Below are positions 19,684-64,000 of a stretch of 64,000 nucleotides of DNA, one piece after another; position 1 is the stretch's first letter, and each line of letters starts with the position of its first letter. Origin of the DNA: a virus. Lineage: Duplodnaviria > Heunggongvirae > Uroviricota > Caudoviricetes. The notes beneath the pieces are model-generated. The model searched no databases. It saw nothing but the letters and a program-made list of their open reading frames with translations, and was not told the DNA's origin. The stretch is from the IMG/VR virus record IMGVR_UViG_3300025018_003790; one strand, written 5' to 3'. The position numbers and the translations under genes are program-made.

Positions 19684-21087
19684 ACCGTTCCTTAAAATCT
19701 GCGGAAATCTAAGCATTTGACAATGCTCCAAATATTCGCAAACCTACTGGTTTAAAACCGGCACCGTAAGGTCCGGTAAAGAATCGATTCAAAATATTCC
19801 TCCCTGCATTTGTATCTGCGTTGCCTTTATGACCACAGCCAAGGCACAGGAATATCTCTCCATTCCGATTCTTCTTATCAGCATGACCACATTCAAGGCA
19901 AGTGATACTGGTATTATAACAGGGAACAGAACGGAAGGAAACACGGTTTTCTTCACATCCCATTTGAACCCGATTCAACCAATATCGCCACACCCACGAG
20001 CCGATAACTCGACGCATATTTTTGGAAAGGCGTCGTCTTTCCTTTGTCTTGTGATTCAAGTTTGACAACTTTTCAACAACCACAAGATCAATCTTTTCAT
20101 TAGAAACTATTTGTTTTGCAACCTCATCCATTCGTTGTTTCAATGCCCTTCTGGCTCGCTTTTGTCCTTTAGAGCCATGTTCACAACGAACTATTCTCTG
20201 CACACATTCTTTTATGTCTCTGCCCAACTGCTCACCGTTAGAAAAAGAAGCCAAGGCGTTGATGCCAGAGTCAATTCCGATAGCATTTTTGCCTTCCTTC
20301 TTCTCTCCTGTTTGAATCTCAAAGCAGAACTGGACATCTTTGTCTGTTATGATGTAGCTATTCAATCTCTGTCCCAAATTGTTCCATTTGTTAAAATGCT
20401 TGTGATATCTGATTGGCAAGTCAATGATAGTCTTTTCCCCAATAGAAGACAGATGTAGCCAACCATCGAATTCGTTTGTCTTAGATGGCTGAATATCAGC
20501 GATAGTGCAAGAGACATACATCCGATTGCCCTTATGCTTTGGCTTTTCTGCTGTCAATGCTTCTGCCTTCTGCTTCAACTGATTAGCTTTGTTGGAATAC
20601 TTCGCCTTTTCGGCTTTAGCTAACAATCGCTTCTTATCATTGGCTATTCGCTCTTGCGAGGCTTTAATCATATCTATTGCTTCACGAGCACAGACTTTTC
20701 TAAGTCTCGCTGATAGCCAAGACTCTGGTTTATTGACTATATCCTTTAGCAATTCTGCTTTGGTTGGGCAATCATCCCAGAAAGAATCAATGAACAGATT
20801 GCAAAGTCTACCATATTCAGTCAGCACAGTTTTAAGTTGCTCACGCTTGGTAGCGGTAGCGAATTTCAAAGAACACTGTGTTGACCGAATTATCTTCATT
20901 TTTCTGTCTTCGCCTCTGCTTCTTTAGCTTCCGCTTCTTTCTATTTTCACTACTTCTTTTGCCGTATATTTTGTTGGAAAATGACGCCATTAGAGAAGCC
21001 GGGTTTGCGAATGCTCACATGTTTCCCTTTCGTTTCCCGCAGTTATCCATAGATTTTCGCAGATTTAGTGCCAACTGTTATTAACCC
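19684..21087 (-). mobile_element. IS607-family element, internally deleted copy (tnpB only, with a tnpA 3' remnant)
   Basis: Right end ACCGTTCCTTAAAATCTGCGGAAATCTAAGCATTTGACAATGCTCCAAAT and left end ATCCATAGATTT(T/C)CGCAGATTTAGTGCCAACTGTTAT are shared with the copy at 47616..51623. Sequence 20900-20990 is homologous to the 3' end of tnpA in the other copy. Confidence 0.7.
19709..20899 (-). CDS. tnpB: TnpB (OrfB) RNA-guided endonuclease, IS607/IS605 family
   Basis: RuvC-I IGIDSGIN, RuvC-II VVVEKL, zinc finger CLECGH...CLGCGH, RuvC-III NADTNAGRNI; about 88% identical to the 47641..48831 copy, with the C-terminal half near-identical. Confidence 0.85.
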   Translation of the reverse strand: MKIIRSTQCSLKFATATKREQLKTVLTEYGRLCNLFIDSFWDDCPTKAELLKDIVNKPESWLSARLRKVCAREAIDMIKASQERIANDKKRLLAKAEKAKYSNKANQLKQKAEALTAEKPKHKGNRMYVSCTIADIQPSKTNEFDGWLHLSSIGEKTIIDLPIRYHKHFNKWNNLGQRLNSYIITDKDVQFCFEIQTGEKKEGKNAIGIDSGINALASFSNGEQLGRDIKECVQRIVRCEHGSKGQKRARRALKQRMDEVAKQIVSNEKIDLVVVEKLSNLNHKTKERRRLSKNMRRVIGSWVWRYWLNRVQMGCEENRVSFRSVPCYNTSITCLECGHADKKNRNGEIFLCLGCGHKGNADTNAGRNILNRFFTGPYGAGFKPVGLRIFGALSNA

Positions 21088-30076: not shown

Positions 30077-32020
30077 TCAGATAGTTTTTAGTCTTTCTAG
30101 TTCATCAAGTTTTAAGAAATAGAACCCGAAAACAGTAGGATACTGCAAGGTTCTTTCTGTGTCAAGATCAATATCTTCCAAATGAGTTCCCTGTGGTTTT
30201 TGAACCCACTTATGAATGTTGCCAAAGAATCTAATAAAAAATTTTTTCACCCAATCAACGATTTGGTTGTGTAAATAATCTTCAAATTTTTCAAAGAGGA
30301 TCAATGCTATTTCATATGGTGATTTCCCATGAGTTACCAATAATTCATAACAAGAGTCTAAAACTTCAAATGGCATTAATTCTCTTTCATCTTCTTGGTT
30401 TTCTGCAAGTTCCGCAGAAGCAACAGTTTTGTAGATCAATCTAGCAAGAACAATCGCAAGTTGTGCGCTCTGTTCGTCGTTTTGATTTGCAAGTGCTTTT
30501 AGATAAAAATACTCCAAAATTTTGTTAATCTTTGTTTTTCGGCAACCAGAGATTGGGGCAAAATCTCCTTGCATATCACCAAGTTTTGTCGCATACCCAA
30601 CGGCTGTTTCCGACATATTGCTTGTGCAGAGCACAAGCCCTCGACAAATATTTGAAAGATTGGCAATTTTTGTTGCACGGATTCTCGCTTGTATATTTTG
30701 ATCTGCAATTCTGTAATCCGCCTCTCCAAAACCAAGCCCTTCATTCAATTTACGCAAATCTACTGATTCTCTTTGAAACGGTTCAGCAATTGATTGTTCG
30801 TAAAAATTAAGACCAAGTGTTTCACATAAATCCTTTGAAATATTTCTGGTAGCATCAGAGTTATAAGATGTTGGGAAAGAGACACAGGTAACAACATCGT
30901 GAGGATTCAAATTATTTCTGATTGCCCATTCATAAGCTAAAATTGCAACCAAGACAGAATCTCGGCCACCAGAAATAGAGATTAACATCCTATCAAAAGT
31001 ACCAACTTTTCTGAAATAATCACCCATTCCCATAATAATTGCATTAATTATTTCTTCGATTTCATCAAAAACTACAACTTTTTCTTGTTTTTTAATTCTT
31101 GATCGATCAATGTTTATTCCCTGTGGAATTTTGACTGTATAAATAGAAGGAATTAACTTTTCTCTTTCAATAAAATCTTCTGCTTGACTTTTCCAGGTTG
31201 TATCTCTTGCCCTTGATGCCCAGACTTCATCAAAATCAACATCTTGGATAACAATTCCTGGTTGGAATCGTTCCAATTCAGCTAAACATTCACCCTCTTG
31301 AATAATATAGCCACCACCATCAAATGAAAGTTCTCCGTTCCCACCAACTTGATATGCTGCTAGAAGAATCGAATGATCATCAATTGATCTTTGTCTCAAC
31401 ATCATTTTTCGATTGTTTTCGACTCCTGATCTAAAAGGCGATGCGTTCAAAATAGCATGAACAACTGCGCCTTCATAACCATGGTGCCTCATTGGCCCAT
31501 CTGGCACCCAAGAGGTTTCACAAATTTCACAAGAAAAAATGAAGGAACCATTAATTTCAAAAAGGAGATCGCCAAAATCTGGATTCTCTAAACCAAAACC
31601 AATTTTTGTTAAATCAAATTGTTTGCCTTCTGTGGTTGTTCTTTTTTCATAAAAAATACCATAGTTCGGAAGATGTTGTTTGGGGGTGATACCGACAACT
31701 TTACCTTTATGAATCACAAAAGCACAATTAAAAATTCCACGACTCGGGATCGGCAGGAATCCACCAATCACAAAAATTGTATCTAGATACATTGTAGCTT
31801 CACAAAATCTATAAATTTCTTCTATTTCTCGGTGAAAGAAAAATGGCAACAAAAGAAAATCGCTACAAGGATAACCTGTTACACAACCTTCTGCATAAAC
31901 CAATAGATTACAACCAAGATCATTTGCATGAGAAGCATAAGGAAGCATTAAATCTACATTGTTCTTAAAATCACCAACTTTAGGATTCATGGAGACAACA
32001 CCGAGACGTGCTTTTGACAT
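30077..32020 (-). CDS. nadE: glutamine-dependent NAD+ synthetase
   Basis: N-terminal CN-hydrolase (nitrilase) domain, C-terminal NAD synthetase domain with PP-loop ISISGGRDSVLVAI (SGGxDS); 647 aa. Confidence 0.8.
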   Translation of the reverse strand: MSKARLGVVSMNPKVGDFKNNVDLMLPYASHANDLGCNLLVYAEGCVTGYPCSDFLLLPFFFHREIEEIYRFCEATMYLDTIFVIGGFLPIPSRGIFNCAFVIHKGKVVGITPKQHLPNYGIFYEKRTTTEGKQFDLTKIGFGLENPDFGDLLFEINGSFIFSCEICETSWVPDGPMRHHGYEGAVVHAILNASPFRSGVENNRKMMLRQRSIDDHSILLAAYQVGGNGELSFDGGGYIIQEGECLAELERFQPGIVIQDVDFDEVWASRARDTTWKSQAEDFIEREKLIPSIYTVKIPQGINIDRSRIKKQEKVVVFDEIEEIINAIIMGMGDYFRKVGTFDRMLISISGGRDSVLVAILAYEWAIRNNLNPHDVVTCVSFPTSYNSDATRNISKDLCETLGLNFYEQSIAEPFQRESVDLRKLNEGLGFGEADYRIADQNIQARIRATKIANLSNICRGLVLCTSNMSETAVGYATKLGDMQGDFAPISGCRKTKINKILEYFYLKALANQNDEQSAQLAIVLARLIYKTVASAELAENQEDERELMPFEVLDSCYELLVTHGKSPYEIALILFEKFEDYLHNQIVDWVKKFFIRFFGNIHKWVQKPQGTHLEDIDLDTERTLQYPTVFGFYFLKLDELERLKTI

Positions 32021-32051
32021 CGCAGTTCCCTTTCGACACAGGCCCTTGGGT

Positions 32052-32696
32052 TTAGATTAACAATTCATCAAAAAGTTCTGTATCGAGATTAGTTAAGCAA
32101 TTGACTTCAAATTTTGAAAGTTGTTTGCCGTTGATCCACCAACTTTTATTGCCATCAGCTAATTCAATAGCAGGCCCATCAAGGCGGTGAAGCTGGCCAT
32201 TTTGCAACCAAGATTTTGAACCATTGGCAAATTCAATTGCTGGGCCATCAAGGCGATGAAGTTTGCCGTTGAGCCACCATTCTTTTGTTCCGTCAAACCT
32301 TTCAATAGCTGGCCCATCAAGGCGATGAGATTTGCCATTCAATCTCCATTCTTTTGATCCGTCGGCATTTTCAATTGCTGGCCCATCAAGGCGGTGAGGC
32401 TGGCCATTTTGCCACCATTCTTTTGATCCATCGGCAAATTCCTTTGCTGGCCCATCAAGACGATGAGGTTTGCCGTTGATGAACCATTCTTTTACCCCAT
32501 TGGGCCAATCAACAGCAGGCCCATTAAGGCGATGAAGTTTGCCGTTGATGTACCAATGTTCTACTCCCTCGGGTGTTTGATATGCTGGCCCATCTTCTCG
32601 GTGAAGTTGGCCATTTAAAGTCCAAGTTTTTACGCCATTATTCTCGATCCTTAATTTTGGATTTTTTTTCATAGTTAACCTCAATTCATCAATCAA
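32052..32696 (-). CDS. MORN-repeat (variant) protein
   Basis: About eight tandem units of the WxNGKxHRLDGPAxE..DGSKEW form. Confidence 0.7.
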   Translation of the reverse strand: MIDELRLTMKKNPKLRIENNGVKTWTLNGQLHREDGPAYQTPEGVEHWYINGKLHRLNGPAVDWPNGVKEWFINGKPHRLDGPAKEFADGSKEWWQNGQPHRLDGPAIENADGSKEWRLNGKSHRLDGPAIERFDGTKEWWLNGKLHRLDGPAIEFANGSKSWLQNGQLHRLDGPAIELADGNKSWWINGKQLSKFEVNCLTNLDTELFDELLI

Positions 32697-33952
32697 TAAA
32701 TAGTTTCTTCAAAGAATTCGGTTGAATTATCCCAAACACGTTGATACCTTTCGACTTCACTCTTGGGGCCTTGTGCTTTCGCAAGATTGTTGCTAATTTT
32801 AACTGTTGAAACAGGTTCGTTGATCATCAAAGAACTTATCACTTCAACTGCTTTAACAATAATTGACAAAGGATCCGCACCAAGATCATTCGAGCAATTT
32901 GTACCAATCCCGAATTTAACACCAATCCTTCCACTGAAAGCTTCAAATAGTTTTTTAGCAAGTGGGGGATTTAATCCATCACTGAAAAAGATGACTTTTT
33001 TGAGTGGGTCAATACCTTGCGATTGATAGAAAGAAATAACCCTTTTACCGAACTTGAAGGGGTCGCCAGAATCATGCCTAATCCCTTTGTAAAAACCAGA
33101 AAGAAATCCAGCAAAATCAGCAAAAAATGCATCATCACCAAATGTATCCCCCAAAGCTATTGATAATGGTTTCCCATAAAAAAGTTTCCAATTTCTAAGG
33201 ACAAATCTTTGTGATTTCCTCAAAGATTCATCCCCACCAATTGCCCCCATTATTGCAGCTATAACCATATACAATTCGTGGGCTTGAGTCCCGCCTGGAA
33301 TTTGTACGTGTTTCATAGCTAAATTAATATTTGATGTCCCTAAACAAGAAGGACAATTCTCAACAAAATCCTCATAACATTCTTCTTGCCATTCAGGACT
33401 AAAAGCCCGCCTTGTCCCAAATTCTACCCACTCAAAACCAGGAATAGAATTGAATAATTCAATTTTTTCTTTTCTGCGGCGGCGGCCTTCTTTTTTAAGT
33501 TCTTCCATTTGATTTGGATATTTATACCGATAATAAAGAGCATTGATTATTGACATAATAAAGGTCTCTGAATAACTGGATCTAGCCCAATAATCTTGAG
33601 AGTCGATCAAAAATTGTCCATCCCGAATGTCAACATTGATTTTAGGCATTTGATAATTTTTTAAGAATTCAAAATAATCAGAAAAATCTTCTTTCTTATA
33701 CCCAACCCTGAATGAATCAGCAATGAATCCAATTTCGTTTGCAGAAAACCTTAATGATCTGCAATGATCTAATTCTTCTCTAACTGCTTCAATTGGAATA
33801 ACTTCAGCTAATTTATTGTCTTTTTTTCTATTGTTGAAAGCAAATCTAACAATAGGGTCTGGGAATCTTTCTTCAATGAAAGCCTGCATGGCAATTTTAT
33901 ACCAATCTGTATGCAAAAGAGTTTTGATAATTGGTTCTGGGTTTGTTAGCAT
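32693..33952 (-). CDS. pncB: nicotinate phosphoribosyltransferase-like enzyme (NAPRTase/NAMPT superfamily)
   Basis: N-terminal LLHTDWYKIAMQ matches the PncB signature LLDTDAYKLHMQ; real start probably the internal ATG at 33950-33952, preceded by GAGGAGGAAAG SD. Confidence 0.65.
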   Translation of the reverse strand: MLTNPEPIIKTLLHTDWYKIAMQAFIEERFPDPIVRFAFNNRKKDNKLAEVIPIEAVREELDHCRSLRFSANEIGFIADSFRVGYKKEDFSDYFEFLKNYQMPKINVDIRDGQFLIDSQDYWARSSYSETFIMSIINALYYRYKYPNQMEELKKEGRRRRKEKIELFNSIPGFEWVEFGTRRAFSPEWQEECYEDFVENCPSCLGTSNINLAMKHVQIPGGTQAHELYMVIAAIMGAIGGDESLRKSQRFVLRNWKLFYGKPLSIALGDTFGDDAFFADFAGFLSGFYKGIRHDSGDPFKFGKRVISFYQSQGIDPLKKVIFFSDGLNPPLAKKLFEAFSGRIGVKFGIGTNCSNDLGADPLSIIVKAVEVISSLMINEPVSTVKISNNLAKAQGPKSEVERYQRVWDNSTEFFEETIY

Positions 33953-33990
33953 CTCTGCTTTCCTCCTCGCCCTCTTCCCCGTTTGTAGCA

Positions 33991-34025
33991 AAGCCCTGCG
34001 GCGCTGTGAGAGCGCCGCAGGGCTT
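33991..34025 (-). promoter_or_regulatory. 15-bp perfect GC-rich hairpin between the vWA and pncB genes
   Basis: AAGCCCTGCGGCGCT-gtgag-AGCGCCGCAGGGCTT; no U-tract, so not a canonical terminator. Confidence 0.5.
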
Positions 34026-45746: not shown

Positions 45747-46658
45747 TTATTTTTCTGCTTTTTTCGACTTGCTGCTGGTTTCTTCTGCGGCCGGAAGATT
45801 GAGAATCATCCCGTTCCCAGAGCCAACGACCAAGGGTTGTGCCCCATCCCAAGCATCAATCGTAAGATACTTCAAAAGACTTGGAGTCAAAGATTCGTTG
45901 ATAATTCTATTCGATTCTGCTTGTGCTCGGGCGATTTCCAGCTTCGATTCGGCCTCGCCCTTTGCTTTCGCAATTGCCTGATCAGCTTGTGCCTTAATCT
46001 CCTTGACCTTTTGCTCCGCTTTACTGGCCTCCTGGCTGGCTTCGATCACAGCGTTGATCGAGTTTACAACCCTTTCGTCAGGCCGAGGAGCGGTCATAAA
46101 GCTAACGTTGTTGAAAATAAATCCACTTGGGCCAAGTTCCGATTCCAAATATTCCTTAACTTCATCAAGCAATGCACCCTTCTTTTCACCGAAAATTTCA
46201 ATCGCTGAATACTTCGAGGCACAACGATTGAATCCATCCCTGACTCTGTCACGGACAGTGTTGTCAGAAAGTTCTTCAATCGTCGTCCAACGATATTTGC
46301 TGTAAATATCAGGGGCTTTTGCCGGATCAATTTGATATTCAATACTCACATCAGCATTGAAATTTGCACCTTCGCTGGACGAAAAATCGAAAGAATCATC
46401 GTTCTTGCTACCCTCTGTGGGGTTTTTCGTCCATTTCTCTGATTGACGATAAATTGGGAAAACAATAATTTCTGTTGTGGGCATGAAATAGAAATGGTAT
46501 CCAACGCCCAACGGAGTCGGGTGGACGCCAGCAGAGCTACCTGTTTTTTTGACTTCAACCCCGACATGTTGCGGTGGGACCTTCGCACACCCCGAAGCAA
46601 AAATTGACACAAAAATCATAATCGAAACTGCCACTGCGGTTCTTTTGGAGAACATCAT
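45747..46658 (-). CDS. SPFH/Band-7 (prohibitin-like) lipoprotein
   Basis: Lipobox IFASGC after a signal helix; SPFH core followed by an Ala/Glu/Lys-rich coiled coil (EASKAEQKVKEIKAQADQAIAKAKGEAESKLEIARAQAE). Confidence 0.7.
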   Translation of the reverse strand: MMFSKRTAVAVSIMIFVSIFASGCAKVPPQHVGVEVKKTGSSAGVHPTPLGVGYHFYFMPTTEIIVFPIYRQSEKWTKNPTEGSKNDDSFDFSSSEGANFNADVSIEYQIDPAKAPDIYSKYRWTTIEELSDNTVRDRVRDGFNRCASKYSAIEIFGEKKGALLDEVKEYLESELGPSGFIFNNVSFMTAPRPDERVVNSINAVIEASQEASKAEQKVKEIKAQADQAIAKAKGEAESKLEIARAQAESNRIINESLTPSLLKYLTIDAWDGAQPLVVGSGNGMILNLPAAEETSSKSKKAEK

Positions 46659-46951
46659 TCACCTTCTTTCGGTTCGGTTGCCGCTTTGATTTCAGCAGGA
46701 GGTTGTTCGGCTTCAACGGTTGGTTTCCAAATTCCAGCGATTTTATTAACACCAATAAGCACAAGGATCAAATCTATACCGAGGACAAGGATCCCATTAA
46801 TTACATATAAATCATTTCTTTTGTTCAAGAGAAAAATTCCAATAATTGCAATAATTGAGACAGCAATTAACCCTAAAATTGAATAGAAAATTGTTTTCGA
46901 AATTTTCATCAGCATCTCGTCACTCATCATCGCTTTCTGTCCTTTCCCCAA
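46655..46951 (-). CDS. small integral membrane protein, SPFH partner
   Basis: Two TM helices; 4-nt overlap with the SPFH gene. Confidence 0.5.
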   Translation of the reverse strand: MGKGQKAMMSDEMLMKISKTIFYSILGLIAVSIIAIIGIFLLNKRNDLYVINGILVLGIDLILVLIGVNKIAGIWKPTVEAEQPPAEIKAATEPKEGE

Positions 46952-47005
46952 ACAAAAAAACGAGAGGCTGAACCAACCAGGGCCATTGGTCGATTCAGCC
47001 TCTCG
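46951..47005 (-). terminator. strong rho-independent terminator
   Basis: CGAGAGGCTGAA-(19 nt loop)-TTCAGCCTCTCG perfect 12-bp stem followed on the minus strand by TTTTTTTGTTTGG. Confidence 0.6.
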
Positions 47006-47289
47006 TATCTTGCTTTTTGGCGCTTGTTAGCACCTTTTCGGCCAACCCAAGCCGGTTCCATAATCCGCAAGAGATCATGGCTCATTGTGCCACCCAGGCC
47101 GAAATGGAGATCACCGATTGCCGGTTTCTTCGAAATGATCATCAACAGCTTTTCAGCCGGATAGGCCCATTTCGACTTCACCAAGAATCTCCCTCACAAA
47201 TCGGCTTACCTTTTTGTGGCACCTTCCACGATACCTCGAACCGGAGAGGCGGATGGTCCTCTCCGGCCCGAGGCACTCTGCGTCAACAC
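46951..47289 (-). ncRNA. candidate structured ncRNA (about 335 nt, GC-rich, promoter-to-terminator unit)
   Basis: Sigma70-type promoter TTGACA-N16-TATACT (47296-47323, minus) upstream, intrinsic terminator downstream; about 55% GC with many perfect stems (e.g. CCGGAGAGG/CCTCTCCGG). The only ORF (TTG start) runs through the terminator hairpin. Confidence 0.35.
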
Positions 47290-47295
47290 ACCTAG

Positions 47296-47323
47296 AGTAT
47301 ATCACCCCAGCGACCAGTGTCAA
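47296..47323 (-). promoter_or_regulatory. sigma70-like promoter TTGACA-N16-TATACT
   Basis: Exact -35 and near-consensus -10 read on the minus strand. Confidence 0.5.
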
Positions 47324-47640
47324 ACTAGGTGGCCTCTGGAAGAAATTCTATCTTTTCTAATAAATCGTTATTGGGAAGCCACTCATCAAACCAATTAAGA
47401 TATTCATCTAATCGTTCTTTTGAAAGATTCAATCTCATACCATGATCACGATCAAGAGAGATTAAGCAACATAACAATTTTTCTAAAAAATCTATGGAAA
47501 TAGACAACCACCATTTTCTACCGAATGAAGAAAAAAGAATCGAGCCGCTGCTGGCCCTATAAAAATAACCACATTGAGTAGGATAATCTTCTCCAATCGG
47601 GACAAAAAGAATCAAACCGTTCCTTAAAATCTGCGGAAAT

Positions 47641-48831
47641 CTAAGCATTTGACAATGCTCCAAATATCCGCAAACTCACTGGTTTGAAACCGGCACCGTA
47701 AGGTCCGGTGAAAAATCGATTCAAAATATTCCTCCCTGCATTTGTATCTGCGTTGCCTTTATGACCACAACCAAGGCACAGGAATATCTCTCCATTCCGA
47801 TTCTTCTTATCAGCATGACCACATTCAGGGCAAGTGATACTGGTATTATAACACGGAACGGTTCGGAAGGAAACACGGTTTTCTTCACACCCCATTTGAA
47901 CCCGGTTCAACCAATATCGCCACACCCACGAGCCAATAACTCGACGCATATTTTTGGAAAGGCGTCGTCTTTCCTTTGTCTTGTGATTCAAATTGCTAAG
48001 CTTCTCCACAACCACAAGATCAATCTTTTCATTAGAAACTATTTGCTTCGCAACCTCATCCATTTGTTGCTTCAATGCCCTTCTGGCTCGCTTTTGTCCT
48101 TTAGAACCATGTTGGCAACGATTGATGCGATTAACGCAACCTTTTATATCTCTGCCCAACTGCTCGCCGTTGGAAAAAGAAGCTAAAGCATTGATACCAG
48201 AATCAATCCCTATGGCATTTTTGCCTTGCTTCTTTTCACCAGTTTCAATTTCAAAGCAAAATTGAACAGAATCTTTTGTTATGATATAGGAATTAAGTCT
48301 TTTTCCCAAGTTGTCCCATTTATTGAAATGCTTATGGAAACGAATTGGCAGGTTCATCACGATCTTATTTCCTATTGAAGCTAGATGAAGCCAAGCATCG
48401 AATTCATTAGTTTTAGACATTTGAAGATCAGCAATAGTGCAACTGACATTCATTCTATTGCCTTTGTGCTTTGGCTTCACGGCTATCAATGACTCTGCTT
48501 TCTGTCTCAATTGGTTCGCCTTTGTTGCGCTTTTAGCTTTTTCTGCTTTGGCAAGAAGCCTCTTCTTTTCGTTGTTGGTTTTTTCTTGGGAAGCCTTGAT
48601 CATGTCAATTGCTTCTCTGGCACAAACCTTTCTAAGTCTAGCTGAAAGCCAAGAATCAGGAGCGTTCACGATGTCTTTTAACAATTCTGCTTTGGTTGGG
48701 CATTGCTCCCAGAAGGAATCGATGAACAGGTTGCAAACTCTTCCGTATTCGGTCAACACAGCACCAAGCTCCAGCCTCTTTGCGGAGGTTGAAAACTTGA
48801 GGCTGCACTGTGCTGACCGAATAATTTTCAT
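47641..48831 (-). CDS. tnpB: TnpB (OrfB) RNA-guided endonuclease
   Basis: Same RuvC-I/II/III and zinc-finger motifs as 19709..20899. Confidence 0.85.
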   Translation of the reverse strand: MKIIRSAQCSLKFSTSAKRLELGAVLTEYGRVCNLFIDSFWEQCPTKAELLKDIVNAPDSWLSARLRKVCAREAIDMIKASQEKTNNEKKRLLAKAEKAKSATKANQLRQKAESLIAVKPKHKGNRMNVSCTIADLQMSKTNEFDAWLHLASIGNKIVMNLPIRFHKHFNKWDNLGKRLNSYIITKDSVQFCFEIETGEKKQGKNAIGIDSGINALASFSNGEQLGRDIKGCVNRINRCQHGSKGQKRARRALKQQMDEVAKQIVSNEKIDLVVVEKLSNLNHKTKERRRLSKNMRRVIGSWVWRYWLNRVQMGCEENRVSFRTVPCYNTSITCPECGHADKKNRNGEIFLCLGCGHKGNADTNAGRNILNRFFTGPYGAGFKPVSLRIFGALSNA

Positions 48832-48832
48832 A

Positions 48833-49120
48833 TCAGTGGACCATCCCTTGCGTATCTATGGTAATTTTCTTTTCTCTCACACTATCTAATATAATAGGAT
48901 ATGGCCTTGATTCAGTAAAAACCTCTTCTCCAATAAGACCGGCTGTATATTCTCCAGATTCCAATGCTAATTGTTTATCATCTTTAACCCACCAATCCAT
49001 TACTTGCTGTTCTTCACCTTCACCAGAAGAAGCAACCTCTGATAATTCGAATTCTATATTCAATTCATAGTCATGTCCATCAATGTTTAGTTTGTGTTCA
49101 GTTTCATATTTAGTTGTCAT
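48833..49120 (-). CDS. small acidic protein (95 aa) inside the IS element
   Basis: ORF track; pI clearly acidic (EFELSEVASSGEGEEQQVMDWW...); 1-nt gap to the tnpB start. Confidence 0.45.
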   Translation of the reverse strand: MTTKYETEHKLNIDGHDYELNIEFELSEVASSGEGEEQQVMDWWVKDDKQLALESGEYTAGLIGEEVFTESRPYPIILDSVREKKITIDTQGMVH

Positions 49121-49132
49121 AATTTTTCTCCT

Positions 49133-50650
49133 TTACAGGTACATAACAGTTTTCTTGAGCTTGCCTAGTTCAATAACATTCTCTATAGGTTCGAACCAAA
49201 AATACTTTCCCTCCCAATCCGGCTGCCTTTGAATAAGTGAATTCCAACTATCAATGTGATTTGAATTTGGGCCGTCACAAAAAGTAAGTCTTTCTTTTCC
49301 AGCGAAGGCGCTTTCTCTCGGATTCCTATCCAATAGGGCCTTTGCCCTATCAATCCCCTTTTCACCAGATACCGTATTCGTAGCAACGCTCTTCTTTATT
49401 ATTTCCTCTGGAATATCCTCATACTTATCAAACACAATCATCTTGTATTGTCTTTTAATTTTGCTTTGAGAATTCCATCTCCCACCAGGGATTATGGTGA
49501 ATTCTCCATCAAAGAATCCGATGATATTATCCACCAATTTAGTGCTTGAGATATAAATCGGGAACACGTCGTCTTGTTTCCTGTGTCCTGATTTACAAGG
49601 AAAGCCTAAATATCTACCGATGGACTGATATAAAGAATCATCGGTTTTATAAGCATCAATATGCATACGAATATGCATAGTCTCATTTAGTGTCTTTCCT
49701 GCTCTCATTGCGCCTTTGATTATAATAATAGAAGGCTTTTTGGGTTGCTCTGATAAAGCACCATCTAACTGACTAATTTCGTAATCTCCATCAATAGAGT
49801 ATTCCCTAAACCAAATATTGGGATAGTTTTGCCCCAAATATCTTTCTATAACGAAGGGGGCTTGCCCCTGTGTCCTAATCACAAGATGACCGTTTCCATT
49901 CTTGTTGCAAAGACCAATGAATTCGTCTAGTCTTTCTTTAAAGAATGGAGTGACACAAGACTTCCTATCATCGGCCACTTTTGTTTCATGAACGACTACA
50001 AATCTCCCATCATTCTTTGCGTCTTCGATTGAATAATAATTATCACTCAATTCCAATTGGATACAAGAAAATGAATTCTCTCTTATTTTTGACTGAAGGA
50101 CAGATGCAAATGGGGTAGCTGACAGAGAAAGAACATAGTTATGACCATTATTCCAATCAGAAATAGGCATACCATATTCTATGCCCAATTTATCAAACAG
50201 CACATTAAGTGGACGACTATTGCCTAGAGCCTGATGGCATTCGTCAAGGAAGATTAGCCTTCTATCTACCGTTAGATCTATTTTATCGGGGATCGCATAT
50301 TCTGCCCCGCTTTTCTTAGTAAAATCTGCGAGATGGAAAACTTTAACCCGACAAGAAGCATTAGGCTCGTAGATACCAGCGTTCTGTAACCTTCGTTGCT
50401 GTTGTATTTTGAGTTCATTATCGGAAATATGAAGGATAAACAATATTTCGTAAGTTAGTCCTTCTTTCTCCCATTCATCTTTCATCATTTTAGCGACAAA
50501 GGTAGCCACTCCAGTTTTCCCCTGTTGGGTTTGAGCAATTAGCAATGGCGGGCCTTCATGCTTGGCAAATTCTTCTATAACCTCTTCTCCTGCTTTAATT
50601 TGTTCATAGTAAATAACTTCATCTCCAATTTTCATTTCAGATAGGCTCAT
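49133..50650 (-). CDS. SF2 helicase-like ATPase (DExH type)
   Basis: Motif I AQTQQGKTGVA, motif II FLDECHQAL, motif III SATP, motif VI-like QSIGRYLG; start overlaps the tnpA stop by 14 nt. Confidence 0.55.
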   Translation of the reverse strand: MSLSEMKIGDEVIYYEQIKAGEEVIEEFAKHEGPPLLIAQTQQGKTGVATFVAKMMKDEWEKEGLTYEILFILHISDNELKIQQQRRLQNAGIYEPNASCRVKVFHLADFTKKSGAEYAIPDKIDLTVDRRLIFLDECHQALGNSRPLNVLFDKLGIEYGMPISDWNNGHNYVLSLSATPFASVLQSKIRENSFSCIQLELSDNYYSIEDAKNDGRFVVVHETKVADDRKSCVTPFFKERLDEFIGLCNKNGNGHLVIRTQGQAPFVIERYLGQNYPNIWFREYSIDGDYEISQLDGALSEQPKKPSIIIIKGAMRAGKTLNETMHIRMHIDAYKTDDSLYQSIGRYLGFPCKSGHRKQDDVFPIYISSTKLVDNIIGFFDGEFTIIPGGRWNSQSKIKRQYKMIVFDKYEDIPEEIIKKSVATNTVSGEKGIDRAKALLDRNPRESAFAGKERLTFCDGPNSNHIDSWNSLIQRQPDWEGKYFWFEPIENVIELGKLKKTVMYL

Positions 50651-51287
50651 TGTTTTCTTCCTTTTCTTTTTCAGCTTTACGCTTTTTCCTATTATCAGCA
50701 GACCGTTTTCCGTAAATTTTATTTGAAAAAGATGCCATCAGCGAAAGAATGTCTTCCACTAACTCTTCTTCATAACTCTTTCCAAGTATTTCTTCAACCC
50801 ATTCAATCTCGACACCGTGGCTTCGGAAGAATTTCACAAGAAACTCAAACATAAATCGGCACAACCGATCACGATGTTCAATGATAACCTTGTCAATCTC
50901 ACCTTCTTCAGCCAGTTTGAGAAGCCGGTTCAATTTTGGGCGATCATCCGACATTCCAGAAGCAACCTCTTCAAAAGTTGCCACGACGAAATATTTTTTA
51001 TCAACACAATATTTTGACAATCTTCCCGATTGTCTCCCTAAGTCGCCTTTTGTTTTTTGTTCTTGCGATGATACTCTAGCATATACCGCTACTCTGATAG
51101 TATCTCTAGTTTTCTCTGCCTCTTCGCCAATAAAAGCCTGAATATCTGATATTTTGTATCGCCTGTGACCACCGGGGGTTTTCATCGGGACAAGAGTTCC
51201 TGACTTGTCCCATTGGCGCAAGGTATCTATATTGACTCCAAGGATTTGTGAGGCTTCTCCTATGCTAACTAACTTCTGTTGCGCCAT
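50637..51287 (-). CDS. tnpA: IS607-type TnpA serine recombinase with N-terminal MerR-like HTH
   Basis: HTH LVSIGEASQILGVNIDTLRQWDKSG; resolvase catalytic block IRVAVYARVSSQEQ...GDLGRQ; 216 aa. Confidence 0.8.
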   Translation of the reverse strand: MAQQKLVSIGEASQILGVNIDTLRQWDKSGTLVPMKTPGGHRRYKISDIQAFIGEEAEKTRDTIRVAVYARVSSQEQKTKGDLGRQSGRLSKYCVDKKYFVVATFEEVASGMSDDRPKLNRLLKLAEEGEIDKVIIEHRDRLCRFMFEFLVKFFRSHGVEIEWVEEILGKSYEEELVEDILSLMASFSNKIYGKRSADNRKKRKAEKEKEENNEPI

Positions 51288-51613
51288 CTATAAGTTCTTT
51301 CTCCTTGAAGGTGTAATACCATTGATCATAGATTCTTTGGAATTCTTCAATCTCAGGAAGTTCATCTTCGGCAAATGGCAACGGATGCGGAAAGACCGAT
51401 CCGTTATCAAGTTCGAATTCAGTTGTTGTAAGTCTAACAACAGTATGCTTTGTAATCATTTTGTCCATACCTTCCTATTCGCAGTTTTCTAACAGATTCC
51501 TGCATATTTTTAAGATTTCCTGAGATTTATTTTGAGGACAGATTTTGCAATGCTCGTTAGAGCATCTTATTTACCCATATATCCATAGATTTCCGCAGAT
51601 TTAGTGCCAACTG

Positions 51614-51877
51614 TTATCTACCCTTTTGGAGCGCAATCAAAGATCCTGCTATTTCTTCATAAACAACACCCAATCTTGTGTTTCCTAAAAGAAACTTTTG
51701 GGATAAAACCATAGCCATATGTTTATCGTCGATATTAAGACCTTTTGCTTTAAGTAATTCTTGGAATTTTACCCTAATTTGATACAAATCATGCCTATTT
51801 TCAGATAAAAACTTCAAAACATCTTTCACCCCCTGGCCCTCTTCCTCTGACATGGCTCTAGACCTTCCTGAAATCAA
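51614..51877 (-). CDS. hypothetical protein (stop codon supplied by the IS left-end sequence)
   Basis: ORF track; TAA at 51614-51616 lies inside the conserved IS terminal block. Confidence 0.4.
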   Translation of the reverse strand: MISGRSRAMSEEEGQGVKDVLKFLSENRHDLYQIRVKFQELLKAKGLNIDDKHMAMVLSQKFLLGNTRLGVVYEEIAGSLIALQKGR

Positions 51878-52288
51878 TTCACAATTGAAATTTCAGAATT
51901 CGAGTACCCAGACCAAAAAGATCTAGATTGAAGAGTTTGAATAGCCCTTGCTGAAAGTAAAGAAATGATCAAGATCAAAATTACCTTTTTCATTTCTTTT
52001 TCTCCGATTCAATCTTTTCTTTCAATGAACCTAATGCCAATGGGATTGTGCCTCTTTTTTCAGAGTTAAAATCTACACCAAAAATAGTATGTTTGAAAGC
52101 TTCAAAACTATCACCATCTTTAGTGATTTCAATTAAATATCCTTCGGATCTTGTTGGTCTGCAAATAAAAGAGTTTCCATCATCTGATGACGAAACATTA
52201 AATTCTTCACCTAAAAACCCCCTGACTAATTCACTGATCTGTTCACATTGTCCCATGTCTTAACTCCTTTTGTGGTTTTTTCGAAACA

Positions 52289-52362
52289 TAGCCAAGGAGA
52301 GACTCGAACTCTCAATAACACGGTTCTTGGCCATGCTCCTCTACCAATTGGGATACTTGGCC
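52289..52362 (-). tRNA. tRNA-like gene, anticodon loop CCAAGAA (nominal anticodon AAG, Leu) with C33; possibly aberrant
   Basis: 74 nt: acceptor GGCCAAG/CTTGGCT (G1-U72), D-arm with GG, anticodon stem CATGG/CCGTG, short variable loop, T-arm GAGAG-TTCGAGT-CTCTC, discriminator A, no encoded CCA. Confidence 0.5.
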
Positions 52363-52370
52363 ATCAGACA

Positions 52371-52889
52371 TTATTCAACTATCCTTAAAAAGTAAATCAC
52401 ATGCATCTCATCAAAATTTTCACTTTTGAAACCAATCACTTCAAAACCATCATCAACAACATTTTGAATTGCTTCTTGTAATGAAAAATCTGAATATCTA
52501 AAAGTCTTTGTTGCAACTTCTTTTTTGATTCCAGCTAATTTTTCGAATTCTTTAACCGTTTTGAAAATTAGACCCATTCGTTTTTTCAAATTTTTAAACA
52601 ATTCTTCAGGGTCTCTTTTCGGTGGATAGGTTTTGATGGGCGGCAATGTTTCACAACAAAGACAAGCAATGTATCCACTCCATTCTTCGTGACTCTCCCA
52701 TTCATCGGAAACAACAATCGCAAAATCTTTCTTTTCTGCGGGTTGAAATTCAACCCTAAATCTTCCAGAACTTTCCAAAAAACTCTCAACAAAATCTTTT
52801 GGCTTAACTACAACCCAAGAATAACCTGGGAAAACTTTGGAAATAGCAGCTAAAAGTTCTTCTATCGCTTTCTCCTTTAGCGACATCAT
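52371..52889 (-). CDS. hypothetical protein
   Basis: ORF track, 172 aa. Confidence 0.45.
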   Translation of the reverse strand: MMSLKEKAIEELLAAISKVFPGYSWVVVKPKDFVESFLESSGRFRVEFQPAEKKDFAIVVSDEWESHEEWSGYIACLCCETLPPIKTYPPKRDPEELFKNLKKRMGLIFKTVKEFEKLAGIKKEVATKTFRYSDFSLQEAIQNVVDDGFEVIGFKSENFDEMHVIYFLRIVE

Positions 52890-53455: not shown

Positions 53456-53860
53456 TCAGTCCTTTCTCTCAATCCCAAGAAGTTTTAGATCTTCTGGGGA
53501 CAAACCTGCAAGCAATTTCTTTTTTTTGAAATCATCTAAAGAATAACTTGTTTGCGCCAAAATTGATTGAGAAATTTCAGGTGGGGTTATATCTGCTTCC
53601 CAATCCATAATCTCTTTCCCTGCGAACCAAGCTTTTCTCCAAACACCACCATATTCACTCAGACCATCAAGAACAATAACCACACCAGGAAGTTTTTCTG
53701 AAACCTTCGCAATATTCTCATAATCCCATGATTTTGTGTTCCCAACTCCGGGGCAATCTGTCATTTTGAAAAACAATTCCTCAACTTCTTTTGTTGCTTC
53801 TGTCGGGACAACAGTTAAGGTGTGCTTAGTGTAATCGCCCACGGGTTTTCTCCTGCTCAT
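53456..53860 (-). CDS. hypothetical protein; start codon overlaps tRNA-Glu discriminator base
   Basis: The ATG is formed by the tRNA discriminator A plus TG. The longer ORF-track version (TTG at 54067) is the reverse complement of tRNA-Glu and a GC-rich leader, so it is rejected. Confidence 0.45.
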   Translation of the reverse strand: MSRRKPVGDYTKHTLTVVPTEATKEVEELFFKMTDCPGVGNTKSWDYENIAKVSEKLPGVVIVLDGLSEYGGVWRKAWFAGKEIMDWEADITPPEISQSILAQTSYSLDDFKKKKLLAGLSPEDLKLLGIERKD

Positions 53861-53931
53861 AGCCCTGGGGGGAATTGAACCCCTCGTTTTAGCCTTGAAA
53901 GGGCTGCGTTCTACCATTGAACTACAGGGCC
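53860..53931 (-). tRNA. tRNA-Glu(TTC)
   Basis: 72 nt: acceptor GGCCCTG/CAGGGCT (G1-U72), D-arm GTTC-AATGGTA-GAAC, anticodon loop CTTTCAA, T-arm GGGG-TTCAATT-CCCC, discriminator A; coordinates anchored to the ORF track (+/-1). Confidence 0.8.
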
Positions 53932-57729: not shown

Positions 57730-57802
57730 AGCCGGTGATTGGGGTTGAACCAACGACCTGCGGGTTACAAATCCGCTGCTCTACCAACTGAGCTACACCG
57801 GC
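57730..57802 (-). tRNA. tRNA-Thr(TGT)
   Basis: 73 nt: acceptor GCCGGTG/CACCGGC, D-arm GCTC-AGTTGGTA-GAGC, anticodon loop TTTGTAA, T-arm GTTGG-TTCAACC-CCAAT, discriminator T. Confidence 0.8.
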
Positions 57803-58402
57803 ATTTTCGACACACTTTCATTTTTTCTAAACTAAATCCTACAATTATCTGAAATCTAAAAAATCAAACAAAGATAAAATTTCATCTTTTCTATAAAACT
57901 TTTCTGCCGAACTAACAATATCTTGAATTATTTTATCCCCAAACCTTGGATAACTAGGTCTAATTTCTTCCGCATCCCAAAATAAATCTGTGCTTAAAGA
58001 AATCATTAAATAAACAACTTGTTCGTCTCTCTCATCAAAGCAAATGTTCAAATGAATCTCACTGTTTAGTTTTGAAATCAAAACATTATTTTTTCTATTC
58101 CAAATAAGTTCTGACATTTTTTTATTTTCAAAATTTTTAAGATTGATCAATTTTCATGCCCAACTCAAACCTGGGCCATCATGCAAAGAGTTATACAAAT
58201 TGTCAATTAACAGTTCCCACTCCGCCCCACTATAACCGCAATGTGTATGCAAATTTCCAATCCTTATCGTCAAACTATTACCGCCAAGATCTTCTTCAAT
58301 TGAAACAATCGCACCATTTTCGTTAATTATCTCAACAATCTTTTTGAGGCACTCTTCGCATTTCTCTGCGGTTGTCATTGCTTCCTCACTTTTAAATCAA
58401 AA

Positions 58403-58486
58403 CGGTAGACCTGGGACTCGAACCCAGAAGGGCTATTAACCCCACCGCTTTTCAAGAGCGGCCCCTGATCCAGCCGGTTGCCTACC
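58403..58486 (-). tRNA. tRNA-Ser(TGA), type II
   Basis: 84 nt: acceptor GGTAGGC/GTCTACC, anticodon arm CCGCT-CTTGAAA-AGCGG, long variable arm, T-arm CTGGG-TTCGAGT-CCCAG, discriminator G. Confidence 0.85.
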
Positions 58487-58607
58487 AAGAACAGACCAAT
58501 CAATCTTTAATTTTTCTCTTTGTCGTCCCTCTCATTTAGCAATCTAACAAGAGCCTGTGCTGCTTTTTTCCCGCCAAAGGTTTTGCCCTCCATGTTTTAC
58601 TCCTCTT

Positions 58608-60562: not shown

Positions 60563-60963
60563 TCTCCGGCCCCTTTTCAGCTTGGCATACCATTAACAAT
60601 TTGCCAAGGTTCAACGCCAACAGATTCAATGTATTTGCATCTTTTCCAAATTTCTTCGACATTTGCCGCAGCCAACGACAATTCGTCTTTATGGAAATAA
60701 AAAACGACAGGATCACCGCCTCCGCAACTTTGACCGTGCATATCTCTATTAAATTCCATAAATACCTTATCTAGAAGGTCTTGCGCCTCAACTTCCATTT
60801 CGTCTGTCATCCAATCATATTCGTATGGACTGAAAATTAAGACTTTTAATTTCCAATAGATATCATCATGATTTTCAAAAGGATTAACAAGAGATTGTGG
60901 CTCAGAAAGTTCTTCATTGCTCATTCCATCTCTCCTTCATTGGTTTTTTTTCGAACCTAACAA

Positions 60964-61035
60964 TACCCCCGGCAGGAATCGAACCTGCATTAATGGCTTA
61001 GAAGGCCACTGCTCTATCCATTGAGCTACGGAGGC
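60964..61035 (-). tRNA. tRNA-Arg(TCT)
   Basis: 72 nt: acceptor GCCTCCG/CGGGGGT (two G-U pairs), D-arm GCTC-AATGGATA-GAGC, anticodon arm GTGGC-CTTCTAA-GCCAT, T-arm GCAGG-TTCGATT-CCTGC, discriminator A. Confidence 0.85.
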
Positions 61036-61081
61036 AAACTACGAACCGTCAGTCTAGCCAACCATTCAATTATACTTCAAT

Positions 61082-62872: not shown

Positions 62873-64000
62873 TCATAAATTAATCTTTTCTGGAAAATCT
62901 CTTGGAATTAGAGAAATTTGGTCAAAGAAATCAAGTTCTTGCGACAGTGCTACAAAACCATGACCTTTTAAATTGATTACCATTTCAGTTGTTTCAGCAT
63001 CTGGAAAAACATCCATAATTTCATCAGCTTCTTCAATGGCCCCGCAAGGCACAATCATCGGAATCCCATCAATTTCTTTTGTCAACATGGGGGCACCTTC
63101 AACATAAAAATGCCCATGAATAATATATCTAATGTTGGGATAAAAATCATAAAGACAAAGTTGAACTGGTGCATCTACTGAAGGTTTATGTGGGCCAAAA
63201 AATTCAACAGGAAGAACACCTGGATTCAAAGCGACAAAACCATCTTTGGAAATCATTGATTTATTTAGATTTCTTTTAGACATATAAATATAATTTTCAT
63301 CTTTGAATGATGTGAATCCGTTCAAACAACGATCAACAATTTTATTTCTAAAAGAGGCATTCCCTAAATATCTAACTTGTTCGACACCTGGAAATTTGCT
63401 TTCAAAAAGACAATTAAAATCATCAGAAAATCTTCGAACTATTGTAAAAAAGGCTTCATCCTCGGGAATTTCAACAGCTTCCCCGGCTTGAAAACTACTG
63501 ATTCTTGTAACATAGAGACTAAGTTGACTTGCTCTTTCAGCAACAACCCTGCACAATTCCTGAATTTCTGTTGAATAATCTAAAAAGAGATTACCAAAGG
63601 GGTCAAGAACACGGGCTTGGAATTTATCATTTGCTCTTGAAAACTCTATTACAATATTTGATCTTGTTCTAAGAGAGTGTTGAACCACATCAAAAGATGT
63701 GTAATTCCCATTTTCAACTCGTTTTGATGAAATAAAAATACTTGTTTTGTATTTTGATTTCATTTTGTCAATAAGCTTTTCAAGTTCATTGGGGATATTT
63801 GGCATCCAAAGAACTATATCAAAATCGTTTTCTTCTGAGAGAACAGCTTGTAAATTTTGATAATAGCCTCCGTTACGAAGTTCTATTTCAAGACCTATTT
63901 TTTGGAATTCTTCTGACATTTGTTGAACTATGCCAGAAGATTTGCCTCCATTTAAATCAAAATTCCCACCAACAAAAAGAAGTTTCATGGGATTCTTCAT
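62873..64000 (-). CDS. hypothetical protein (375 aa); start codon is the last triplet of the window
   Basis: ORF track; N-terminal KLLFVGGNFDLNGGKSSGIVQQ Rossmann-like glycine-rich segment, no confident family call. Confidence 0.45.
   Translation of the reverse strand: MKNPMKLLFVGGNFDLNGGKSSGIVQQMSEEFQKIGLEIELRNGGYYQNLQAVLSEENDFDIVLWMPNIPNELEKLIDKMKSKYKTSIFISSKRVENGNYTSFDVVQHSLRTRSNIVIEFSRANDKFQARVLDPFGNLFLDYSTEIQELCRVVAERASQLSLYVTRISSFQAGEAVEIPEDEAFFTIVRRFSDDFNCLFESKFPGVEQVRYLGNASFRNKIVDRCLNGFTSFKDENYIYMSKRNLNKSMISKDGFVALNPGVLPVEFFGPHKPSVDAPVQLCLYDFYPNIRYIIHGHFYVEGAPMLTKEIDGIPMIVPCGAIEEADEIMDVFPDAETTEMVINLKGHGFVALSQELDFFDQISLIPRDFPEKINL

Follow-up and report, generated by a model that had tools for sequence, protein, structure and literature searches.

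Organization and boundaries of the element

We analyzed a 64,000-nucleotide stretch of viral DNA (IMG/VR record IMGVR_UViG_3300025018_003790), referred to in its full length as the window, which carries on its minus strand, at 47617-51622, an IS607-family transposon of about 4 kb with two genes that are probably passengers. Read along the element strand, the order is left end (LE), orf67, tnpA, a gene for a 505-aa superfamily 2 (SF2) helicase-like protein, orf95, tnpB and right end (RE), with both cargo genes inside the LE-RE boundaries and exactly between tnpA and tnpB. A first-pass annotation of the window had placed the element at 47616-51623 and had described tnpA, the 505-aa helicase-like gene, orf95 and tnpB on the minus strand; the open reading frame (ORF) list and family scans recovered all four genes where it had put them, and the GG cores that delimit the element (47617-47618 and 51621-51622) moved its limits by only 1-2 nt. 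Features beyond that annotation are orf67 (51265..51468), the interruption of a host ORF and a large-phage-like host.

The tnpA gene (50637..51287, minus strand) encodes an IS607-type serine transposase of 216 aa with an N-terminal MerR-like helix-turn-helix (HTH), a resolvase catalytic domain and the active-site context ARVSS at residue 70. The protein matched Pfam Resolvase (5e-26), MerR (5e-12) and also MerR_1, the NCBIfam equivalog NF033518 'IS607 family transposase' (191.5 bits, cutoff 110) and PHROG 6620 transposase (4e-52). The tnpB gene (47641..48831, minus strand) starts 1 nt after the orf95 stop and encodes an RNA-guided nuclease, in which the RuvC motifs (IGIDSG at 207, VVVEKL at 273 and NADTNA at 360) are intact and are accompanied by a CxxC...CxxC zinc ribbon. 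It matched Pfam Cas12f1-like_TNB (2.6e-12) and NCBIfam guided_TnpB (E=6e-23), but the latter with 81.7 bits, below the 100-bit cutoff.

The LE (51480..51622, minus strand), the boundary of which was read from the sequence, was recognized by its 97% identity to the LE of a second, tnpB-only copy in the window (hereafter the short copy) and by the positions of its motifs. Its GG core (51621-51622) lies inside a GGG at 51621-51623 with an AGGG flank, its terminal block spans 51580-51620, and it contains five AAATCT motifs, with first bases on the minus strand at 51602, 51592, 51545, 51528 and 51518. The RE (47617..47660, minus strand) ends in ...AAGGAACGG, has its GG core at 47617-47618 and carries two AAATCT motifs that are inverted relative to those of the LE. 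On the element strand, with a slash at the junction, the long copy reads AAAG-GG/TAGATAACAG... at the LE, with TAGAT following the core, and ...AAGGAAC-GG/TTTGATT at the RE; the short copy reads GATG-GG/TTAATAACAG..., with TTAAT following the core, and ...AAGGAAC-GG/TATCTCA. Both copies have a GG core and an xGGG left flank, and their flanks show no target duplication. A 17-nt motif, AAATCTGCG[G/A]AAATCTA, was found at exactly four places in the 64 kb, namely both ends of the two copies, where it lies in inverted orientation, as compared to 0.05 matches expected by chance. In a right-end alignment of 27 related elements, the AACGG/T terminus was nearly invariant and similarity ceased directly after it.

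In the CboIStron, an IS607 element of Clostridium botulinum with a GG core, TGGG has been shown experimentally to be both the target of TnpA and the transposon-adjacent motif (TAM) of TnpB, and excision needs 6-7-bp inverted end motifs (bioRxiv 10.1101/2023.11.20.567912). By analogy, the AAATCT motifs are putative TnpA-binding sites. Like IS607 of Helicobacter pylori and the CboIStron, the window element has a MerR-HTH serine transposase followed by TnpB, a GG core, a T/AGGG flank at the LE without target duplication, short inverted end motifs, an omega-RNA in the tnpB 3' end and RE, and a tnpB-only derivative in the same genome. It differs in the two extra genes between tnpA and tnpB, in a small conserved gene upstream of tnpA, in having no group I intron and in its host, a large phage-like genome. 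The element shows every property of the family that can be tested on sequence, namely a MerR-HTH serine recombinase, a tnpB on the same strand downstream of tnpA (though not adjacent, as 1.8 kb is inserted between them), a GG core with an xGGG target and no target-site duplication in both copies, and short repeated or inverted end motifs without long terminal inverted repeats. An identity as an IStron (group I intron plus IS607) was rejected since no Rfam group I intron was found at the gathering threshold in the window, nor at E<=1 in 47000-52400. A promoter and terminator scan gave no signal above that of shuffles, and phage DNA databases contained no match to the element.

A native third gene and a predicted omega-RNA

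Between the LE and tnpA lies orf67 (51265..51468, minus strand), which overlaps the tnpA start and encodes a small acidic protein of 67 aa (pI 4.4). Homologs are located directly upstream of tnpA in two loci, L044 (L044:5751-6020, 45% identity) and L045 (L045:519-740, 33% identity). Related viral elements were surveyed by searching IMG/VR with a TnpA alignment and by scanning the resulting 54 loci (L047-L100; 43-67% identity) with home-made hidden Markov models (HMMs); the survey covers one collection with mechanical ORF calls, and near-duplicate loci are not all collapsed in the counts. An HMM built from the three orf67 sequences (window, L044 and L045) found the gene upstream of tnpA in 47 of these 54 loci, and a homolog is also present directly upstream of tnpA in an actinobacterial metagenome-assembled genome. 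The family has the consensus TEFE..G..P...DE...FQ..YD.W and its gene usually overlaps tnpA, while orf67 itself had no match in Pfam, PHROG, NCBIfam or PADLOC. This recurrent position in viral loci and in the actinobacterial genome marks orf67 as a third gene that is conserved in, and native to, this IS607 subgroup, and not as cargo; its product might be an accessory factor that annotation has missed, such as one that controls directionality or regulation.

A predicted omega-RNA scaffold (47619..47806, minus strand) overlaps the 3' end of tnpB and extends to the RE, with covariation-supported helices at ~47689-47806 followed by a terminal hairpin. RNAalifold, run on the final ~190 nt of tnpB together with the RE in the 27 related elements, yielded 38 pairs, 17 of them with compensatory changes. 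In this alignment 95.6% of cells were paired as compared to 41-46% in slid controls, and 87 double-change cells were counted as compared to 8-22 in the controls; the observed values were reached in none of 500 shuffles. The region matched no Rfam family, and on the strength of covariation the conserved structure at the tnpB 3' end and RE is the expected omega-RNA. The predicted guide (47597..47616, minus strand; the 20-nt length is assumed) is identical to the target half of the donor joint (TTTGATTCTTTTTGTCCCGA); we infer this assignment because the segment directly follows the RE on its 3' side and because TnpB works in this way in the CboIStron study.

A tnpB-only copy and the interrupted host genes

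The short copy (19685..21086, minus strand) is a tnpB-only derivative that also interrupts a host ORF. It consists of an RE with its GG core at 19685-19686, a tnpB (19709..20899, minus strand) that is ~27 kb away from the tnpB of the long copy and 87% identical to it in amino acids, a remnant of the tnpA 3' end (20897-20997, minus strand) directly upstream of the tnpB start, and an LE block (21044-21084, minus strand) followed by a GG core at 21085-21086 with a TGGG flank. By blastn, 19684-20829 of the short copy aligned to 47616-48761 of the long copy (RE plus tnpB) with 84% identity, and its LE (21044-21081) aligned to 51580-51617 with 97% identity over 38 nt. The first-pass annotation had proposed that both termini of the 4-kb element recur around the tnpB-only copy, and alignment bears this out for the RE with tnpB and for the left-end block, as does the 17-nt motif at all four ends. 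Its further proposal, that the sequence upstream of the short-copy tnpB is homologous to the tnpA 3' end, is confirmed as well: local alignment of 20896-20997 with 50647-50745 gave a score of 56, whereas 300 shuffles gave 22.6 +/- 2.6 with a maximum of 33, and the translation of the remnant, SLMASFSNKIYGKRS, is identical to the TnpA C-terminus and fused directly to the tnpB start codon.

The RuvC D-E-D triad and the zinc-finger motifs are intact in the tnpB of both copies, and both carry the covariation-supported omega-RNA in the tnpB 3' end. Identity between the two genes (47641-48831 vs 19709-20899) is 93-97% in the 3' ~450 nt and 62-83% in the 5' 750 nt, a jump that could reflect constraint on the omega-RNA, gene conversion, or both. 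Identity values, the only data considered on this point, gave no clear signal that tnpA and tnpB stem from two different sublineages, and a chimeric element was set aside.

In silico excision between the GG cores fuses the flanking ORFs in frame, restoring host ORFs of 187 codons (long copy) and 143 codons (short copy), and thus both copies interrupt genes. Both split their host ORFs in the same codon phase, with the LE providing a stop within a few nucleotides (47325-47663/51614-51877 and 19486-19731/21081-21311). At the long copy, the N-terminal part of the interrupted ORF is located at 51623..51877 (minus strand), its TAA stop at 51614-51616 coming from the LE, and the C-terminal part is located at 47325..47616 (minus strand). 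An in-frame ATG at 47648 in the RE, which overlaps the tnpB stop, gives rise to the 107-aa protein that gene callers report at this end. From this ATG the downstream host fragment could be re-initiated; in the right-end alignment, the open frame through the RE is retained in several, not all, relatives. Near the short copy, an N6/N4 DNA methyltransferase gene (21584-22654, minus strand) lies ~500 nt from the LE, and methyltransferases are also IS607 cargo or neighbours in L044, L047 and L060-L062.

The two cargo genes

The first cargo gene (49133..50650, minus strand) encodes the 505-aa SF2 helicase-like ATPase and overlaps the tnpA stop with its start by 14 nt. The protein contains motif I (GKT, 44-46), motif II (DECH, 136-139), motif III (SAT, 177-179) and motif VI (Q..GR, 342-346), all of which are invariant in an alignment of its 18-member family, and it matched Pfam ResIII (E=1.6e-6). 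The characters of an SF2 helicase, that is Walker A, DExH, SAT, Q..GR and two RecA-like lobes, are all present. An AlphaFold2 model of the protein had a pLDDT of 83.4; the best Foldseek matches of this model were all SF2 helicases (TM about 0.4-0.57), those in the PDB being generic SF2 proteins and those in BFVD uncharacterised giant-virus and phage proteins. A specific helicase subfamily among solved structures was found neither by sequence profile nor by the fold search, which returned generic SF2 proteins only. The window protein matched ResIII only, whereas 11 of the 18 family members matched cpSF2-GREB1 (PF20692; best E=1.1e-9); by the Pfam test, the family is related to cpSF2-GREB1 and the window protein is not a member of it. 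The most likely identity of the 505-aa protein is that of a nucleic-acid-dependent ATPase such as large phages and giant viruses encode in stand-alone genes, one that would be useful to the phage or the element and not needed for transposition.

A word-indexed search recovered the 18 helicase relatives, one of them identical and the next best 38% identical (others 31-38%). A full profile search widened this to 252 cluster representatives with E<=1e-30, or 1507 with the threshold set to E<=1e-10, and the matches listed were mostly 500-650 aa, that is, stand-alone in size; no second helicase paralog is present in the window. In other large phages and giant viruses, the homologs (31-38% identity) stand alone, so that the source of the cargo is probably a gene family native to such viruses. 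In the roughly 10 distinct contexts compared, most homologs had no adjacent tnpA or tnpB, a TnpB neighbour was seen only in L008-L010, no tnpA relative was present in any helicase-homolog locus examined, and synteny with the window was limited to the helicase itself. From this comparison, the cargo helicase probably derives from the viral gene pool. The first-pass annotation had counted IS-independent flanks of the helicase gene in related genomes as evidence against cargo; such flanks are literally found around the distant homologs (31-38%), but they identify the source of the cargo, and the window gene itself lies inside the element.

The homolog in L001 adjoins genes for DNA polymerase A, gp32, RecA and a 5'-3' exonuclease, that in L011 adjoins a dUTPase gene with an HNH gene ~1.6 kb upstream, and those in L007 and L008 are near Thg1. 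Genes of the homing-endonuclease type (DUF723, T5orf172, LAGLIDADG) often lie beside or close to the homolog, and in one case its neighbour is a tnpB-only element (L001, L007, L008, L011), which suggests that the helicase gene is a conserved landmark targeted by selfish elements in large phages. Such attraction of TnpB (L008) and of DUF723, T5orf172, LAGLIDADG and HNH genes (L001, L007, L011) would also suit a different history, in which the helicase and orf95 belong to the phage and occupy their native position between what is left of two separate IS607 insertions, the upstream one having lost tnpB and its RE and the downstream one its LE and tnpA. We consider that history very improbable: the interior contains nothing that resembles an LE or RE, the 17-nt end motif being confined to the four outer ends, the junctions of the insert fall on start and stop codons to the nucleotide, and removal of the DNA between the outer GG cores restores a single in-frame host ORF, as one insertion predicts.

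The second cargo gene, orf95 (48833..49120, minus strand), encodes an acidic protein of 95 aa (pI 4.3; 22 D+E, 8 K+R) that had no detectable homolog in Pfam, PHROG, NCBIfam or PADLOC. Its identity as a conserved partner of the helicase was rejected, as it is unlike the genes downstream of the helicase homologs and unlike the cargo ORFs of related elements. None of the helicase, orf95 and orf67 matched a PADLOC defence model at E<=0.1. A defence or anti-defence identity of the cargo was likewise rejected, given the lack of a PADLOC match and the generic SF2 matches that were all the cargo of relatives gave.

The cargo insertion looks derived

The sister elements show the tnpA-tnpB junction without cargo. 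In the closest tnpB relatives, P0020 and P0023, which come from similar phage-like contigs, a MerR-only gene of 130/146 aa precedes tnpB with its stop overlapping the tnpB ATG (P0020; TnpB 89% identical in amino acids; L027-L032), and a 58-aa MerR-HTH fragment abuts the tnpB start (P0023; TnpB 78%; L036). A full-length relative, L097 (TnpA 64%), has the canonical ATGA overlap of the tnpA stop with the tnpB ATG. Since a tnpA remnant or MerR-only gene abuts tnpB in three related elements, the short copy included, and since L097 has the ATGA overlap, the cargo insertion looks derived, and acquisition of the cargo between tnpA and tnpB is the parsimonious reading of these sequences. This supports the first-pass annotation, which had taken the helicase and orf95 for genes acquired between tnpA and tnpB.

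In the long copy, the insert junctions read ATGA at both sides, ...AACAATGA/GCCTATCTGAAATGAAAATTGG... and ...CACTGATATGA/AAATTATTCGG, and the 9-bp sequence ATGAAAATT is present at helicase codon 6 and again at the tnpB start. The GC content at third codon positions is 24% in orf95 and 35% in the helicase gene, as compared to 24-28% in phage genes and 41% in tnpB, so that base composition weakly agrees with acquisition of the cargo. Overall, we consider it likely that the element is an IS607-family transposon of a large phage-like genome into which two passenger genes were secondarily inserted where tnpA meets tnpB.

From the anatomy, boundaries, family membership and RNA structure of the element and the derived position of its cargo relative to sister elements, which are given directly by the analysis, we infer how the insertion arose, how the 4-kb form could move and what the cargo could do. 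A 1.8-kb segment with a viral-type SF2 helicase gene and orf95 would have entered precisely between tnpA and tnpB, probably by a single illegitimate recombination at ATGA microhomology. The helicase would now use the former ribosome-binding site and start codon of tnpB, with tnpB following orf95 after a 1-nt spacer, and the helicase and orf95 would share the expression of the transposon genes and move with them as passengers. By analogy with the CboIStron, TnpA would synapse the ends, cut at the GG core, excise a circular double-stranded DNA and reinsert it at xGGG sites without target duplication. For the 4-kb unit, the predicted donor joint is CTCCAAAAGGGTTTGATTCT and the predicted circle junction is TTAAGGAACGGTAGATAACAGTTGG. 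TnpB with its omega-RNA, for which the predicted target is AGGG or TGGG followed by TTTGATTCTTTTTGTC, would cut the emptied donor joint (AGGG + TTTGATTC...), and recombination with an occupied copy would restore the element.

The opposite direction of change would be that the cargo form is ancestral and that the tnpB-only copy and the MerR-only relatives lost the helicase and orf95 between the direct repeats (ATGA / ATGAAAATT), with a further deletion inside tnpA. Direct repeats do flank the insert, filled slots are the majority in the same tnpB clade (21 loci vs 5 abutting), and all close relatives of the window tnpB have a decayed tnpA, so deletions are frequent. This history would however need the same precise loss in three separate lineages; furthermore, the helicase family of the window was found in the slot of no relative (no match at E<0.01 in the 54 loci), and the base composition of the cargo is more phage-like than that of tnpA and tnpB. 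We therefore regard an ancestral cargo as rather improbable.

Several points weigh against a derived passenger insertion as well. The 4-kb form was seen at one genomic site only, and no empty site, second insertion or circle junction of it was present in the collections searched; movement of the 4-kb form as one unit is therefore putative. The search for empty sites used the flanking Band_7 protein against metagenome contigs, the fused 'repaired' host protein, the contexts of the downstream fragment and exact junction patterns in IMG/VR, where the end motif gave two chance matches. In addition, the direction of the event rests on sister elements and not on an outgroup with the same ends, and the ATGA repeats and the 9-bp ATGAAAATT are just as compatible with a precise deletion of the insert. 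The helicase gene is widespread in large phages, and the window might hold the single copy that this phage possesses. Finally, SF2 helicases recur at the tnpA-tnpB slot in relatives, which hints at more than chance hitch-hiking.

The tnpA-tnpB junction in related viral elements

Among the surveyed loci, 51 have a tnpB downstream of tnpA. The two genes abut in 18 of these, are separated by a 250-315-nt gap in 4, and have at least one same-strand ORF (>=67 aa) between them in 29. By Pfam, SF2 helicases occupy the slot in L070, L089, L090 and L095, and ResIII proteins also follow tnpA in L047 and L063; other cargo comprises N6/N4 and Dam methyltransferases, LAGLIDADG-like proteins, an M24 peptidase and DUF4238 (L044/L048), and many slot ORFs of 60-250 aa had no Pfam match. 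In L092, a second IS607 with a tnpA and tnpB of another clade is nested in the slot.

The four loci with SF2 helicases (L070, L089, L090, L095) contain one type of element of ~4.9 kb, in which homology is confined to the stretch from LE (GGG/TTAATCAACTGC) to RE (AACGG/T), the flanks being unrelated. As read from these boundaries, this helicase-carrying IS607 has therefore been transposed as a unit at least four times, and cargo-bearing IS607 elements can move as units. The L070-type element resembles that of the window in its order of an orf67-like gene, tnpA, SF2 helicase, small ORF and a tnpB of the same clade, and in its similar ends. It differs in its four sites, as compared to one for the window form, and in its larger helicase (720-878 aa; ResIII/DEAD/Helicase_C), which has C-terminal repeats (WTKE.C.ESA..Y....EW......AY.AA.KNGW..EC..HM). 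The two helicases have only the generic SF2 N-lobe in common (hhalign probability 8%), and were thus independently recruited.

Helicases at this position raise the question of whether the window helicase, perhaps together with orf95, is kept by selection for a function that it performs for the transposon and is not inert cargo; it could aid recombinational repair after TnpB cleavage, assist in the resolution or replication of the circular intermediate, or act as a remodeller of the omega-RNA or of the target DNA. SF2 helicases of at least two unrelated families stand directly after tnpA in related IS607 elements, the L070 type at four independent sites, ResIII proteins hold the same place in L047 and L063, the window helicase is translationally coupled to tnpA, and Altae-Tran et al. 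2023 (PMC10691335) had likewise noted cargo helicases. However, 18 of the 51 loci are without cargo and others hold methyltransferases, LAGLIDADG proteins, a peptidase, DUF4238 or unknown small ORFs, so a helicase is not required; moreover, nearly all homologs of the window helicase are without tnpA or tnpB, and the tnpB-only copy and CboIStron-type elements persist or work without a helicase. We consider such a partnership unlikely; the analysis neither favours nor refutes the alternative given in the first-pass annotation that the helicase has a role in transposition. We give a low probability to the broader proposal that in this IS607 clade of phages the tnpA-tnpB junction is a dedicated cargo slot to which SF2 helicases are repeatedly recruited as they raise the success of the element. 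If true, these would be three-part gene drives (recombinase, RNA-guided nuclease and helicase), in which, for example, the helicase promotes recombinational copying after TnpB cleavage in phage co-infection.

IS elements with passenger genes are known in ISfinder usage as transporter IS (tIS), and those described belong mostly to DDE families. The window element is like a tIS in being a single IS with its own ends and transposase and with non-transposition genes inside, and unlike it in that the carrier is a serine-recombinase/TnpB element with its cargo at one fixed slot. In a study of TnpB diversity, serine-recombinase branches such as Ser-3 were noted to carry extra genes 'on rare occasions', namely an additional HTH protein, 'an ATP-dependent RNA helicase', 'a WhiA/meganuclease-like protein' and proteins without known domains, the mention being limited to a single sentence and a figure (Altae-Tran et al. 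2023, PNAS, PMC10691335). These cargo classes are those seen in the slot of the window's relatives. The window helicase family (ResIII only; relatives match cpSF2-GREB1) differs from the L070-type DEAD/Helicase_C proteins, and the window tnpB is likened to Ser-3 by cargo only; a filled slot is common among the viral loci (29/51), whereas it was called rare in that study. Our literature search found no other paper on IS607 cargo. The first-pass annotation had held that cargo inside IS607 elements is not commonly described, which is correct in that it has barely been described; it had nonetheless already been mentioned (PMC10691335), and the slot is often filled in related viral elements. The window element adds an example to a kind of cargo already on record, with a new helicase family.

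Host context and assembly

The window belongs to a longer metagenomic contig of 114 kb (ENA ERZ27293386 k141_349346), to which it is 100% identical over the 15 kb that were compared. Nearly all genes of the window are on one strand, and it contains PHROG matches, HNH endonucleases, a DNA methyltransferase and NAD-salvage genes. Upstream of the element, five tRNA genes are scattered among small ORFs (52288-52363, 53860-53931, 57730-57802, 58402-58487 and 60963-61036; Leu, Glu, Thr, Ser and Arg types), all five called by ARAGORN and four confirmed by Rfam at the gathering threshold. No capsid or terminase gene was seen in the 64-kb window. From this gene content, a large phage as host is a well-supported inference, not proof.

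The full 4-kb arrangement with both flanks was identical in four independently assembled ENA/JGI contigs, including the 114-kb contig and a 7-kb contig. IS repeats often break or mis-join metagenomic assemblies, and some contigs end inside tnpB; against this background an assembly chimera of an IS copy and an unrelated helicase locus was considered, and the agreement of the four contigs leaves it only a negligible probability. A 1.6-kb contig (L035; Ga0210041_1066497) is 100% identical to window 46598-46801 (204 nt) and then diverges inside the Band_7 gene, which is either a strain variant or a mis-assembly.

Elsewhere in the window, genes for NAD synthase, NAPRTase and an aldolase-II-like protein (30077-33991, 62873-64000) stand in a phage-like context, and a similar set with NAPRTase and an aldolase-II-like gene is present in L007, an unrelated large-phage contig that has a helicase homolog. 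The ORF at 18511-18768 (minus strand) ends in a (KLE)n repeat, KLEKLEKLEKLEKLEKLE.

Biological significance

IS200/IS605 and IS607 elements are usually regarded as minimal transposons that consist of a transposase, TnpB and an omega-RNA. In viral contigs, the tnpA-tnpB junction of IS607 is often a loading bay for helicases, DNA methyltransferases, homing-endonuclease-like proteins and unknown small proteins, and the analysis flags the orf67 family as a near-constant companion of this TnpA subgroup. The gain from the window locus itself is modest, being one more example with a new helicase family, but the recurrent slot with its repeated capture of helicases merits systematic study. Since TnpB makes the element act like a homing gene drive, the genes in the slot would be driven through a phage population, and carriage in the slot is a plausible route for the spread of phage accessory genes.

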